IMG/VR virus record: IMGVR_UViG_3300029508_000048
Location: 1 to 24,982 of that record
Direction: 5' to 3' (one strand)
Origin: a virus
Taxonomy: Duplodnaviria > Heunggongvirae > Uroviricota > Caudoviricetes
Length of the DNA: 24,982 nt
A program made the translations under genes and the position numbers. The stretch's first letter is position 1, and the number at the start of each line of letters is the position of its first letter. Of this stretch, positions 2,629 through 15,667 are shown piece after piece. The notes beneath the pieces are model-generated. The model was not told the origin of the DNA, ran no database searches, and worked only from the letters and a program-made list of their open reading frames with translations.

Positions 2629-2974
2629 TCTCTGCTCCTGTTGATACGGAAAGGGACACAGGCACACCGTTATTCCGCCGCCCGGTCAGCTCCACCACCA
2701 TAGAACCGTCAAAGTTGCTGTTGATAGTGATGGAATCCAGCGTCAGCCGTGGCTCCCAGCGACTCAGCGCCACATACACTGCCGACATGACCTGCAGGCG
2801 TAATGCCGGATTTTGTGGCTGATCTATTAAAACCGACAGGAGGGAACCATATTCCCGGCGGGCAATGCGGCTACCCTGCGGTGTCAGCAGAATGTCCCGC
2901 ACCGACTGGCGCAGATGATCAATATCAGTAATGACTTTGCCGCTGGTATTGTTCATCCCGCTATAAAGCGTCAT
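2615..2974 (-). CDS. W: Baseplate protein W (gp25/GPW family)
   Basis: 119-aa minus ORF between V and J, small GPW-like baseplate wedge protein by size, position and sequence character. Overlaps the J start. Confidence 0.8.
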   Translation of the reverse strand: MTLYSGMNNTSGKVITDIDHLRQSVRDILLTPQGSRIARREYGSLLSVLIDQPQNPALRLQVMSAVYVALSRWEPRLTLDSITINSNFDGSMVVELTGRRNNGVPVSLSVSTGAENGSD

Positions 2975-3549
2975 ACCGGGCCTCCGGTTGTATCGCCGCC
3001 TTTCAGGACGCCAGTATGCTGATGCGCATCAACCACAATCCCGTTAGAACTCATCGCACCGCCGCCCTGGGTAACGCCACCATTGATCACCACTTCGCTG
3101 TTAATACGCGTGCGGTCAGCCTCCAGTACAAACTCACTGGTTTTCATGGTGATGTTGTCAGCGGCCTCAATGACCATTGATTTGATGCCCCTGACATACC
3201 AGCGCCCGGTGGCGGGTTCGTATTCAAACCAGCCACCGTCAGGATGTTCTATCACGCAGGCGTCCGCCGACGTCGACGGTGGCGCGAACTGATTCGAATA
3301 GATGGCGGGTAACGCAAAGGCGGTTTCCAGATTGCCGCCCAGACTCAGCAGCACCACCTGCTCACCTTCCGATGGTCGCCACCATGTGCGGGCATTACCC
3401 GCGCGCAGCGTCAGCCAGTTAATCCAGTTGGTTTCAAGGTCGCCCGTTTTCACCCGACAAAGCCAGTTTTCCCGGTCCACTTCGGTGACTACACCTATGC
3501 GGATCAGATTGGTGATAAGGCGCATGATTTCTGTGAGTTGTGAGTTCAT
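2971..3549 (-). CDS. V: Baseplate spike / tail protein V (P2 gpV-like)
   Basis: 192-aa minus ORF; N-terminus MNSQLTEIMRLITNLIRIGVV resembles the remembered P2 gpV N-terminus. First gene of the V-W-J-I-H operon. Confidence 0.85.
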   Translation of the reverse strand: MNSQLTEIMRLITNLIRIGVVTEVDRENWLCRVKTGDLETNWINWLTLRAGNARTWWRPSEGEQVVLLSLGGNLETAFALPAIYSNQFAPPSTSADACVIEHPDGGWFEYEPATGRWYVRGIKSMVIEAADNITMKTSEFVLEADRTRINSEVVINGGVTQGGGAMSSNGIVVDAHQHTGVLKGGDTTGGPV

Positions 3550-3558
3550 GCCTATAGA

Positions 3559-3587
3559 TTGACATGGGGTGATTATGAAGTATAAAT
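3559..3587 (+). promoter_or_regulatory. Sigma70-like promoter for the AT-rich insert gene
   Basis: Perfect TTGACA at 3559-3564, 16-17 bp spacer, TATAAA/ATAAAT at 3581-3587; about 45 bp upstream of the 3631 ATG. Confidence 0.45.
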
Positions 3588-3630
3588 ATTGCGGTTTGTA
3601 TCACTCACTATACAATGCTGATAAAAAACA

Positions 3631-4500
3631 ATGAATAAATTCCAAATTAGTCCAAATTTAAAACCTGAAACAAAACTGTGGCGCTATATGTCTCTTGATA
3701 AATTCATCGATATATTATCCAGAGAAGAGCTATATTTTTCTCCTCTTAGTTCTTACAGCAATAGCGATCCATATGAGGGGTTATTACCTAAGGTTGCCTT
3801 AAATGCGTGGGCAAGCATCGTCAAAAGTAAGTTTAATGATATACAATCATATTTCAATGATACCGTAGAGCGTATCAGGGAAAACGAACTATTAGGCAGA
3901 ATCTCTAATGAAAAAGCCGAAACAGAAATCACCAAGTTGCAAACAATGATGGATACACAATTACCAAAAATAGAATCTATCTATTTTAAGATTTTAAACT
4001 CCGTCACAGTGAATTGTTGGCATCAAAATGAACATGAGTCAGAAGGAATGTGGCGTTTGTATTCAGATGCTAACAAAGGAATAGCAATTCAAACATCAAT
4101 ATCACGCTTGATAGATTCACTTCAATCTGAAGAGATTATCTCTATTAGTGAAGTAAAATACATTGATTATTTCGATGAAAAACTAACATCTGAAGATTGC
4201 GTCGTGAACGGAAGAATGGTTCCTTTTTTAAAACGAAAAGCTTTTTCACATGAAAATGAAGTACGTTTATCCATAACACCAAAAATTATTAATAGCGACA
4301 TCGAAAACTATACTCCCAAGGGGATAAGAATAAAAACAGATCCTGTAAAGCTAATCGAAAAAATATACATTTCTCCATATGCTTCACAACCTTACCCCAG
4401 TGCTGTAGCAGCAATATTAGAAAAATTCAATATTGATAATAACAAACTTGTTATCTCCAACTTGCTTACGATTGATCATAATTTATTGAGATTGTTTTGA
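3631..4500 (+). CDS. Hypothetical protein, AT-rich moron in reverse orientation inside the late tail cluster (position of P2 orf30); possible abortive-infection or defence protein
   Basis: 289-aa ORF with AT-rich codon usage unlike the flanking late genes, opposite strand, own promoter. N-terminal motif LWRYMSLDKFIDILSREELYFSP...SDPYEG. No family assigned. Confidence 0.7.
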   Translation: MNKFQISPNLKPETKLWRYMSLDKFIDILSREELYFSPLSSYSNSDPYEGLLPKVALNAWASIVKSKFNDIQSYFNDTVERIRENELLGRISNEKAETEITKLQTMMDTQLPKIESIYFKILNSVTVNCWHQNEHESEGMWRLYSDANKGIAIQTSISRLIDSLQSEEIISISEVKYIDYFDEKLTSEDCVVNGRMVPFLKRKAFSHENEVRLSITPKIINSDIENYTPKGIRIKTDPVKLIEKIYISPYASQPYPSAVAAILEKFNIDNNKLVISNLLTIDHNLLRLF

Positions 4501-4505
4501 TTAGC

Positions 4506-4955
4506 TTAGCTATCAACCAAAGCACGTAATAATACGTCTTGCGATAATGACAAAATTTTATCGTTATAACCTAACAACTGCCGCTCTGCATAACGCACCT
4601 CCGGTCCCTTACGACTGACGCGATCTCGCAGGCCGTAATGGTGAACGCGGGCAATGCGCTGCAGCTTGCCTTCAAACTGTACACTGGCAGAGTCGGCGCT
4701 GGCGGCAGTTTTCAGGTATTTTGTCGTGCGCAGCTTTGCAAACATCTGACGTTTGATGCGCCCCTTCTTGCTGCGTGCTGTTACCCTGCGCGGTTCATAA
4801 CTGCTGCCATCTGGATTGCGCTGCATCCTGATATTCTGCTGCTGTGTCCGGCGCAGTTCCTGCGCCAGCTGGCGCATCATGCGGCTTCTCGTGGCTGGTT
4901 CCAGATTCGCCAGCAAGGCACTCAGCCAGTCGTCCACCTTCTGCAGTTCAGCCAC
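4506..4955 (-). CDS. S: Tail completion protein S (P2 gpS-like)
   Basis: 149-aa minus ORF, GTG start at 4955 with GGTG upstream; basic C-terminal half; downstream of R. Confidence 0.8.
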   Translation of the reverse strand: MAELQKVDDWLSALLANLEPATRSRMMRQLAQELRRTQQQNIRMQRNPDGSSYEPRRVTARSKKGRIKRQMFAKLRTTKYLKTAASADSASVQFEGKLQRIARVHHYGLRDRVSRKGPEVRYAERQLLGYNDKILSLSQDVLLRALVDS

Positions 4956-13296: not shown

Positions 13297-13914
13297 TTAC
13301 CAGTTAAAAATTGATGAGCTGCGAATTGCAGGAACATCCGATGGATTTCGTTTAGCAGCTGGTTCCATCAACTTACGCTTGTTAAATGCCTGATCAATAT
13401 AATACTCAGGATTTTTAATAAAGACAGAGTATTTTACCAATGCACAATATACGTCAGAGTCATTATAATGGGGAACTGTTTTTTCATAAACATGATTCTT
13501 TCTAACCAGATAAGGCAAATAATAATCATATCCCCAACCTGGCGTTCTTAGACTTATAGAACATCCGCATGATGGATCTGCACATACTGCAGGAGTAAAC
13601 ACACTATCGTAAATTTCATCTCTGATAACACCAATTAGACCATTATAGTTTTCTCCCCAGAGTGATGCTTGAATTTCAGAGTTTACAAATGGACGATTTT
13701 TGGTTTCCGTTCCAATAAGAACGACAGTAACCGTTGAGTCTTTTAAAAAATCCTCACGAATAGTCCTCATTATTGTTTCATCAGTGTTAGTTGTACTAAT
13801 GTCACCATCACTTACCGACTTATCAATAAACGATTCTCCTCCGAATAAATCAATAATCTCATCTTTGAGATCTTGTTCGTTAGCATGATGATAACTAAGA
13901 AACGTCTTATGCAT
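13297..13914 (-). CDS. TIR-like protein, ThsB-like (DUF1863-type TIR-like domain), candidate NAD-consuming sensor of a defence cassette
   Basis: 205-aa AT-rich ORF. N-terminal KTFLSYHHANEQD, then TVTVVLIGTETKNRPFVNSEIQAS with a Glu near residue 80, resembling remembered ThsB/TIR motifs (F-S-Y-H...D strand, VLIG..T, catalytic E). Start ATG overlaps the upstream stop (TAATG); GGAG RBS. Confidence 0.6.
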   Translation of the reverse strand: MHKTFLSYHHANEQDLKDEIIDLFGGESFIDKSVSDGDISTTNTDETIMRTIREDFLKDSTVTVVLIGTETKNRPFVNSEIQASLWGENYNGLIGVIRDEIYDSVFTPAVCADPSCGCSISLRTPGWGYDYYLPYLVRKNHVYEKTVPHYNDSDVYCALVKYSVFIKNPEYYIDQAFNKRKLMEPAAKRNPSDVPAIRSSSIFNW

Positions 13915-14645
13915 TATTCACTCCATTTATCAACATTTATATCAAACTCTTTGACTACCTTATCATTGAAGAAATCGTTTACTTCTTTAAAACCTTCCAA
14001 TACTTGACTAAAATGATAATAATGCTTTTGTATAGTACTTATAGGGGTTAAATGATACGGCAATGATATAAATTCGCCGTTAGGGTCTCTATCCTTTGTG
14101 GTCACTTTATCATTATCTGAAACATATTTATGCCATCTCCGATAATTATTTTGATGCTTTGTTAAAAAAGAGTTTAACGTTTTCAAAATTTCATTTGAAA
14201 GTAAATACAGTTTTTTATCTCTTTTTTTCTTCACATCTAGTAATTTCATTTCATCTCTAATGAATTTATAGCACTCATAATATGAGTTTAAAACTTCTTC
14301 AATTGAGTCATAATTCGGATCAAATTTAAATAATGTTCGCTTCGTATCCAGATAATTTTTTACGCTCTTTTTAAAAAGAAGATCAGACTTATTTAGTAAA
14401 ATATTAATACCACCAAAACTAAGTTGCTCTAATCTCAATGAATATCTTTGATGAAATGCACCGACCAGCAAGATATAAGCAACTAAAAATAGTATTAATA
14501 CTGATAGAAAAGCACGAATTATGTTTACATTTGACATGAAATTAACTATAAACCACCATTTTTCAAACGGTGAAAACGGAATGCACCCCATGATAATAAG
14601 TAGAAGAACAAAGATACAACCCCATAAAACCCACAATCTGTACAT
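13914..14645 (-). CDS. Membrane protein with two N-terminal TM helices and an unassigned soluble domain of about 180 aa; candidate effector partner of the TIR-like protein
   Basis: Track ORF starts at TTG 14690. Preferred start is ATG 14645 (MYRLWVLWGCIFVLLLIIMGCI...) with AGGA 8 nt upstream. Two hydrophobic helices then a K/N/Y-rich domain. Very AT-rich. Translationally coupled to the downstream TIR-like gene. Confidence 0.65.
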   Translation of the reverse strand: MYRLWVLWGCIFVLLLIIMGCIPFSPFEKWWFIVNFMSNVNIIRAFLSVLILFLVAYILLVGAFHQRYSLRLEQLSFGGINILLNKSDLLFKKSVKNYLDTKRTLFKFDPNYDSIEEVLNSYYECYKFIRDEMKLLDVKKKRDKKLYLLSNEILKTLNSFLTKHQNNYRRWHKYVSDNDKVTTKDRDPNGEFISLPYHLTPISTIQKHYYHFSQVLEGFKEVNDFFNDKVVKEFDINVDKWSE

Positions 14646-14989: not shown

Positions 14990-15667
14990 CTAGAACGTGA
15001 CAGCCTTGTCAAAGCCAGAAATAATTGTATAAGAAATAGACGAGTTATCAGCCTTGTTCACTTTGAACTTGGCACCTTTGTAAGCGATAACATCACTTCC
15101 CTTAGAATCTACAGAAAAATCTGTTGTAAATGCTGCACGAGCCATATCGTTTGCAAATTCACGATAGGTGAACTTCATTACACCGCCTGCATTTCCATTA
15201 TATTCGATAGTCTTAACCAATGAATTACTCACTCGACACAGCCCATCAGGAACACGTTTGATAGAAATTTCTGATGCAGTATAAGAAGTGCCATTTGGCG
15301 GTGATATCTCATTTTTTGCAGCATCGTAACTAACATAATCAACATAGTTACCGATTTGCCCATAGAGATTTTTTAACGCAACAGCTTGAGGGTTATGATA
15401 ATTGCGGTAAATTCCATTCCCCTCACTGCAATATGTACCAGCAGCGATAGAAGACAATGCACCATTAGCCGCACCAAGTTCTAGTACGTCCGTTTTAAAT
15501 CCAGTAGCAGATGTGATAATGGGATCGCCCATGTAGGCGGTAGCACTTTGCCCAATAGCTGGCTTCACCACTTCAATAGCAGTGATATTTCGGTTAGAAG
15601 CATGTGGCACGCAACCAGTTAGGATTACAGCAAGAGATATTGGTAACGCTACATTATTAATTTTCAT
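14990..15667 (-). CDS. Lipoprotein of unknown function (cargo gene in the cos-proximal right-arm region; candidate surface/exclusion factor)
   Basis: Start at ATG 15667 gives MKINNVALPISLAVILTGC, a signal peptide with lipobox L-T-G-C. Mature part is Gly/Ser/Asn/Tyr-rich. GC lower than the backbone by eye. Confidence 0.7.
   Translation of the reverse strand: MKINNVALPISLAVILTGCVPHASNRNITAIEVVKPAIGQSATAYMGDPIITSATGFKTDVLELGAANGALSSIAAGTYCSEGNGIYRNYHNPQAVALKNLYGQIGNYVDYVSYDAAKNEISPPNGTSYTASEISIKRVPDGLCRVSNSLVKTIEYNGNAGGVMKFTYREFANDMARAAFTTDFSVDSKGSDVIAYKGAKFKVNKADNSSISYTIISGFDKAVTF

Follow-up and report, generated by a model that had tools for sequence, protein, structure and literature searches.

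A DUF2971 gene in the S/V slot of an Escherichia coli P2-like prophage as candidate anti-phage cargo

A single gene in the S/V slot of an E. coli P2-like (Peduoviridae) prophage encodes a DUF2971 protein with a predicted ART-like fold, which would be expressed in the lysogen and serve as anti-phage cargo, a reading to which we assign a probability of roughly 0.55. The parts of this reading differ in strength. That the open reading frame is a functional cargo gene is highly probable; an anti-phage role of its product is probable; and action by ADP-ribosylation, which depends on a modelled fold, falls somewhat short of an even chance. With membership in a recognised family and a location in a recognised kind of prophage hotspot, the gene is a credible anti-phage candidate. 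It lies in a window (the whole stretch of DNA analysed, 24,982 nucleotides of the IMG/VR record IMGVR_UViG_3300029508_000048) on which an earlier note had been made from the letters alone. In the following sections we focus on the gene and its family, on the slot in which it stands, and on the promoters that meet there.

The cargo gene and its protein family

The region around the gene is a P2-type late region in which V and S are both encoded on the minus strand and a 289-aa open reading frame lies antisense to both (Table 1). The earlier note had described an AT-rich frame on the strand opposite the late operons, converging on S with a 5-bp gap, and both observations are borne out: the GC content is about 0.33 in the frame itself and 0.32-0.37 across 3451-4500, as against 0.55-0.60 in the flanks, and the convergent stop codons are separated by 5 bp (4501-4505). 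The N-terminal motif quoted there (LWRYMSLDKFIDILSREELYFSP...SDPYEG) is likewise present in the translation. A consensus promoter and terminator scan predicts no intrinsic terminator between the cargo gene and S, and across 4495-4510 transcription of the cargo gene might run on, in antisense, into S, R and the lysis genes.

Table 1. Features of the S/V junction and its cargo gene, in positions of the window.
Feature	Position	Strand	Description
Baseplate spike gene V	2971..3549	-	Flank of the slot; open reading frame list and annotation
Swapped low-GC module	3550..4582	.	V promoter region, antisense cargo and S tail; homology breakpoints and GC profile
TGTCAATCT at V -15..-7	3556..3564	-	Probable extended -10 element of the late V promoter (inferred role)
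Sigma-70-like promoter	3559..3586	+	TTGACA 3559-3564, 16-nt spacer, TATAAA 3581-3586; implied start near 3593
TGT-N12-ACA dyad	3597..3614	.	Begins 65 nt before the V ATG and falls within the cargo gene's 5' leader; read from the sequence
DUF2971 / PDC-S31 gene	3631..4500	+	ATG start, 289 aa, stop codon included; open reading frame list
Helical hairpin, codons 54-124	3790..4002	+	AlphaFold2 helices 54-87 and 94-124; inserted in the ART-like core
HENEVR, codons 207-212	4249..4266	+	H-E-x-E-x-R invariant in 51 homologues; candidate ExE catalytic motif (ART motif III)
S, tail completion / virion morphogenesis gene	4506..4955	-	Flank of the slot; open reading frame list and annotation
AT-rich 3' end of S	4506..4582	-	Last ~20-25 residues; travels with the cargo module

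Identical E. coli copies of the protein share the RefSeq identifier WP_047657211.1 ('DUF2971 domain-containing protein'). The locus occurs in 10 of 5426 complete E. coli genomes, at an identity of at least 99.5% and always on the chromosome, and in strain GPEC1189 the identical locus is found within a complete P2-like prophage extending from ogr to int. In this strain an IS5 transposase and an invertase-type recombinase break the tail-fibre / Z-fun region (L001, 14207-15130), the prophage being otherwise identical. A Megablast search of 50,697 phage records with the locus as query gives no match, and tblastn against phage records finds a distant homologue in one Acinetobacter phage only.

The earlier note had likened the N-terminus to a family that it could not name, sometimes linked to abortive infection. 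Profile searches place the protein in DUF2971 (PDC-S31), of which Aristaios, shown by experiment to be an abortive infection system, is a distant member (PMC11381338). The Pfam profile PF11185 is matched above its gathering cut-off (33.6 bits against 22; E 1.1e-7) by residues 140-213, which span profile positions 1-89 of 89, and the putative catalytic motif HENEVR stands at the end of this match. Four PDC-S31 HMMs of PADLOC also match, the best being PDLC04993 (E 2e-24) and the three others ranging from 2e-8 to 7e-7, as does PHROG 34615 (phrog_34615; E 1.6e-42); a search of NCBIfam with the 289-aa protein gives no match. PDC-S31 is a single-gene family, and neither the module described here nor the homologue loci examined contain a second conserved gene. 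The family has the status of a candidate only, and its location differs from the present one, since PDC candidates were defined by their embedding in BREX, DISARM or type I RM loci (bioRxiv 10.1101/2024.01.29.577857) and the gene considered here occupies a prophage tail-gene slot.

DUF2971 proteins are numerous and widespread. An exhaustive profile search yields 12,296 clusters at 50% identity (E <= 1e-3), a word-indexed search with the protein itself 576 homologues, and tblastn 250 matching plasmid records, which include plasmids of Bacillus and haloarchaea; the family is also found in soil Bacillus and in marine bacteria. Homologues in the same slot and orientation are encoded in Kluyvera (61% identity), Citrobacter (59%), Pantoea (56%), Enterobacter (56%) and Yersinia (42%), and a homologue of Pseudomonas oryzae (41%) adjoins an integrase in a non-P2 context. 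Between the slot homologues synonymous sites are saturated (pS 0.64-0.87) at a low pN of 0.10-0.44, and dN/dS is 0.07-0.22 where computable, from which it follows that the gene is real, functional and long resident in the S/V slot. In two Enterobacter prophages (L163, 4412-4966; L164, 4385-4966) an additional gene of 184-193 aa, without a match in Pfam or PADLOC, precedes the DUF2971 gene in the same slot and orientation, and it may be an accessory partner in the Enterobacter lineage.

An alignment of 51 homologues with 36-61% identity to the query reveals a set of invariant residues, namely W17-R18-Y19, D46-P47-x-E49-G50, C129-W130, S137-E138, M140-W141, Y144, Y177, P198, K201-R202 and H207-E208-x-E210-x-R212. 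The AlphaFold2 model built on this alignment (pLDDT 93, pTM 0.86) consists of a strand-helix-strand N-terminus, a helical hairpin (54-124), a mixed beta core (126-215) and a C-terminal alpha/beta subdomain. Conservation is lowest in the hairpin, where the top-residue frequency averages 0.30 as compared with 0.66-0.72 in the core, and we infer that this hypervariable part is a candidate sensor or regulatory element. When the model is compared with the PDB by Foldseek, DarT chains fill seven of the eight top places, at weak E-values of 0.04-0.7. A split beta-sheet ART fold is thus predicted, with 8-13% sequence identity to DarT in the structural alignments; at the level of sequence, a profile search of the PDB gives no significant hit, its best matches (E 0.3) being helical ones to unrelated proteins. 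A bioinformatic survey assigned DUF2971 to the ART superfamily, close to DarT, AbiGi and Tox-ART-HYD1, and noted in it, besides large helical inserts, a conserved Tyr and an ExE motif (PMC12522546). The invariant R18, S137/E138, Y144 and E208-x-E210 fit the published DUF2971 logo (PMC12522546), and it is a plausible guess that R18, Y144 and E208/E210 form the catalytic set. The predicted assignment to the ARTs is based on a remote fold match, with which the published placement of the family agrees (PMC12522546). Modelled in this way, the product would be a cytoplasmic DUF2971 protein with an ART-like core nearest to DarT, to which the hypervariable hairpin and the C-terminal subdomain are added.

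Three of the known systems closest to this protein each differ from it in several respects. Compared with DarT of DarTG (PDB 7omv, 7yk3 and 8baq), the query has an additional 70-residue helical hairpin and a C-terminal subdomain of ~75 residues, the residue at its motif I position is apparently Arg (WRY) and not the His of the H-Y-E ART clade, and neither the Pfam DarT/DUF4433 profile nor PADLOC DarT matches at E <= 1. It also lacks a DarG partner: no DarG macrodomain gene lies beside the open reading frame, which is the only one in the module and has the phage genes V and S as its neighbours, and DarG is also missing from the homologue loci examined. No match to Rfam is found over 3300-4800 at E <= 1, and thus no known RNA antitoxin or riboswitch lies there. 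A toxin-like ART that is constitutively expressed without an adjacent antitoxin would require some auto-inhibition or target specificity. AbiGi of the lactococcal AbiG system is reported to be related in sequence to DUF2971 within the ART superfamily and is likewise linked to abortive infection (PMC12522546), but AbiG comprises two genes, AbiGi and AbiGii, whereas the gene described here is single and does not match the Pfam AbiGi profile. Aristaios, encoded on the Lactococcus plasmid pUCCL641 (Grafakou et al., 2024, PMC11381338), shares with the present gene the single-gene organisation, the DUF2971 domain, the predicted ART fold, a similar size (316 aa) and carriage by a mobile element; it differs in its Gram-positive host and in residing on a plasmid rather than in a prophage slot. 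The two are compared by description and their sequence similarity is probably low; no Lactococcus record is among the 40 listed of the 250 matching plasmid records.

Some DUF2971 proteins may serve other ends. In a Legionella-centred survey ~18% of them were predicted to be effectors (PMC12522546), and P2-like hotspots sometimes hold toxins such as cytolethal distending toxin (PMC9122126), as would be expected if the gene were a fitness or virulence factor of the bacterium, i.e., a lysogenic-conversion toxin or an effector directed at eukaryotic or competitor cells. We regard this as very improbable, in view of a protein sequence that on direct reading shows neither a signal peptide nor a hydrophobic segment, a single gene with no secretion or delivery genes nearby, and an occurrence in soil Bacillus, on haloarchaeal plasmids and in marine bacteria which fits a general role against mobile elements better than host-specific virulence.

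An exchangeable slot between S and V

The S/V junction was surveyed by means of the S protein: 75 species-level loci and 80 viral contigs were fetched and the distance from S to V was measured, and the counts given here cover 146 related loci, i.e., 66 species-level loci and 80 close viral contigs. The junction is empty (71-77 bp) in most of them and filled in 41 (31 of the species-level loci and 10 of the viral contigs), with inserts of 0.55-3.4 kb whose genes mostly run antisense to S and V. The GC content of the inserts is 0.32-0.40 in enterobacterial loci, where the flanks have 0.47-0.63, and rises to 0.56 in more distant hosts. The cargo falls into about 40 unrelated protein clusters. The variable cargo slot that the earlier note had considered probable is now established by comparison of the junctions.

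Several of these cargo genes are of known or candidate defence types. Septu PtuAB is found in four loci (L022, L023, L027 and L076, from Enterobacter, Tatumella, Scandinavium and Erwinia-like genomes), as complete two-gene Septu-like cassettes that combine a PtuA of 407-442 aa with a partner of 217-218 aa in inserts of 2.0-3.4 kb. Other loci hold PDC-S25 (SIR2/ThsA-like), PDC-S66 (TIR-like), an ApeA-like protein and the candidates PDC-S49, PDC-S15 and PDC-S59, and two further PDC-S31/DUF2971 genes occupy the slot in Winslowiella and Pseudomonas. For about half of the cargo there is no match or defence annotation, and location alone is therefore weak evidence for a defence function. In one locus (L131) the inserted gene, antisense and overlapping the end of S, codes for a membrane protein of 268 aa.

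In P2 itself the slot is occupied by orf30, as the earlier note had stated. Its 261-aa product is encoded antisense at the same position, and the two genes agree in low GC content and size class. They are nonetheless unrelated in sequence (BLASTP E 2.5), so that homology of the cargo gene to orf30 is rejected and the gene is an alternative allele in the same slot, as the earlier note had thought possible; orf30 has no Pfam match. They also differ at the convergent end, where in P2 a hairpin separates S from orf30 (L157, 2975-3015) and the present locus has the 5-bp gap.

The S/V slot is of the same kind as the horizontally acquired accessory loci of P2, old/tin (between A and Q) and Z/fun. Previous work has described such sites at varying depth: gpA-gpQ is the sole P2-like hotspot analysed by Rousset et al. 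(2022), old/tin, Z/fun and a third hotspot near cI were described by Egorov et al., and additional hotspots 'within the tail genes' were reported by Moura de Sousa et al. (2026), who located 16% of P2 defence systems 'downstream of GpL'. This last class most probably includes the S/V junction, and the slot is accordingly already known as an accessory or defence site, at lower resolution. The gpA-gpQ hotspot of the same prophage encodes a ThsB-like TIR protein (PADLOC ThsB E 6.5e-12; 13300-13914, minus strand), followed by a 243-aa protein (13917-14645, minus strand); another protein, of 225 aa, is encoded at 14993-15667 (minus strand), and neither of these two has a match. Together with the DUF2971 gene, the ThsB-like locus gives this prophage at least two candidate defence loci.

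The exchanged unit is larger than the cargo gene. DNA homology to relatives ends at the start codon of V (3549/3550) and, in comparison with 86 related loci, within S at ~4582, and the unit thus takes in the last ~20 codons of S. The C-terminal tails of S vary between the cargo alleles and retain the pattern LLGxN...D.L..L, so that an essential structural gene has a swappable C-terminal tail encoded in a low-GC module. A repeat search around the module finds no flanking direct repeats and one weak inverted pair only. An origin from a transposon or IS element is rejected on these grounds, and the absence of flanking repeats points to recombination within the conserved flanks, and not to transposition, as the route of exchange.

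Since the essential V promoter and the S tail are swapped as a unit with the cargo, hitch-hiking is conceivable, and the gene might bring no benefit against phages, either as a neutral passenger or as a selfish toxin for addiction or stabilisation, kept only by its linkage to the recombining module. The rarity of the allele among complete E. coli genomes would agree with this explanation. It is made quite improbable by the strong purifying selection maintained over saturated synonymous divergence, by putative catalytic motifs that are invariant across the 51 homologues, and by the open reading frame list and Rfam, in which no antitoxin gene and no known RNA appear.

Putative overlapping promoters at the V end of the slot

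The earlier note had credited the gene with a strong near-consensus sigma70 promoter of its own. The two hexamers are indeed present, at a spacing of 16 nt and not the alternative 17. TTGACA-N16-TATAAA is the sole match in the 25-kb window at up to one mismatch, with 0.07 expected by chance, and its hexamer match of 11 of 12 (a perfect TTGACA with TATAAA at 16 nt) is the best of all cassettes and specific to this one. A stricter consensus scan does not report it because the -10 ends in A and not in the conserved final T. In the homologue loci of Kluyvera, Pantoea and Citrobacter the -35 is found as TTGACA or ATGACA, and the -10 region is not conserved.

The attribution of this putative promoter to the cargo gene alone holds only in part, as the -35 is shared with a motif of the late V promoter. 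On the strand of V, a TGnCAA motif lies at -15..-10 of the gene, reading TGTCAA here, TGGCAA in empty sites and TGCAAT in P2; over the longer stretch, TGTCAATCT is replaced by TGGCAACCT in empty sites and by TGCAATCT in P2. Judged by sequence and position, the motif probably forms the extended -10 of the V promoter. Read on the opposite strand, it gives the cargo TTGACA; in empty sites TTGCCA already stands at this place. Given that the V-promoter motif is present even in empty sites, the cargo -35 does not belong purely to the gene's own promoter; what is specific to the cassette is the hexamer pair.

A second probable element of the late promoter is the TGT-N12-ACA dyad, which, on the established biology of P2, we take to be the type of site bound by the Ogr/B-type late activators of P2-like phages. 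It stands at -63 to -66 of the V ATG in most distinct junction sequences surveyed (L002-L156), empty or filled. From the dyad to the V ATG there is otherwise no sequence conservation, with TGnCAA(y)CT kept in position at -15..-7. The centre of the dyad is ~55 nt from the V ATG, and the V mRNA would consequently have almost no leader. This arrangement suggests that the cargo promoter and the late V promoter overlap back to back and that transcription of the cargo would start at the dyad's edge. The cargo may then be expressed while the late promoter is silent, and its expression displaced when Ogr activates the late promoter.

The promoter arrangement also bears on whether the protein works for the phage that carries it. 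Phages use ARTs for host takeover, and the product might be a host-takeover or anti-defence ART of the phage's own lytic or establishment programme, like T4 Alt, ModA and ModB. The ART-like predicted fold would suit such a role, as would the homologue in the Acinetobacter phage and a fold search of BFVD, which returns uncharacterised viral proteins only, at E-values of 4e-5 to 1e-3. A gene of this programme would, however, hardly be expected antisense to the late operon behind a promoter-like site of the sigma-70 type, and the dyad for the late activator, being downstream of the implied cargo start, cannot activate the gene. Furthermore, the slot is empty in most relatives, which means that the phage can do without the gene; Septu and other known defence-type genes are found in the same slot; and anti-defence genes are rare in P2-like prophages (28 of 1511; PMC13586616). 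Altogether, we hold a function in the phage's own programme to be improbable and retain that of lysogen-expressed anti-phage cargo.

A broader picture of the slot can be drawn from the same elements, in which it acts as a self-contained, exchangeable 'defence socket'. Along with an antisense cargo gene, every cassette would then bring the final ~20 codons of S and a late V promoter of its own, with the dyad fixed at about -64 and TGnCAA at -15, and the cargo promoter would make use of the V promoter core, read from the other strand. Cargo expression in lysogeny and Ogr-driven late transcription would be mutually exclusive, such that a potentially self-harming DarT-like ART, in this DUF2971 clade free of an antitoxin and equipped with a hypervariable hairpin that senses infection, would be on in lysogeny and off when its own prophage enters the lytic cycle. 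As a whole we consider this picture doubtful.

Proposed action and biological meaning

For the anti-phage cargo itself, the following course of events is proposed. In the lysogen, the gene would be transcribed from the sigma-70 promoter, back to back with the silent, Ogr-dependent late V promoter, and the protein would be inactive until another phage infects the cell. Upon infection, it would use NAD+ to ADP-ribosylate either nucleic acid or some part of the gene-expression machinery, and this modification would block phage development in a manner resembling abortive infection, as reported for the distant DUF2971 protein Aristaios. Aristaios confers abortive-infection-type phage resistance as a single gene (PMC11381338) and blocks phage transcription or protein production (PMC13064643; PMC12967558), and these phenotypes are those of Aristaios only.

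The result extends a well-described pattern of prophage cargo and overturns no current understanding. It draws attention to the S/V slot, which is less studied than the A-Q (old/tin) and Z/fun hotspots and which, with many of its cargo genes unannotated, is a cheap source of further candidates. Should the protein prove active, it would be the first DUF2971 defence from a prophage of a Gram-negative bacterium in a tractable host, since E. coli comes with its panels of coliphages. The overlapping design of the two promoters raises the question of whether defence expression is coupled to the lysogenic state. An antitoxin-free DarT-like enzyme poses the further question of how a potentially lethal ART stays silent until infection, and the hypervariable hairpin is the obvious place to look for the answer.
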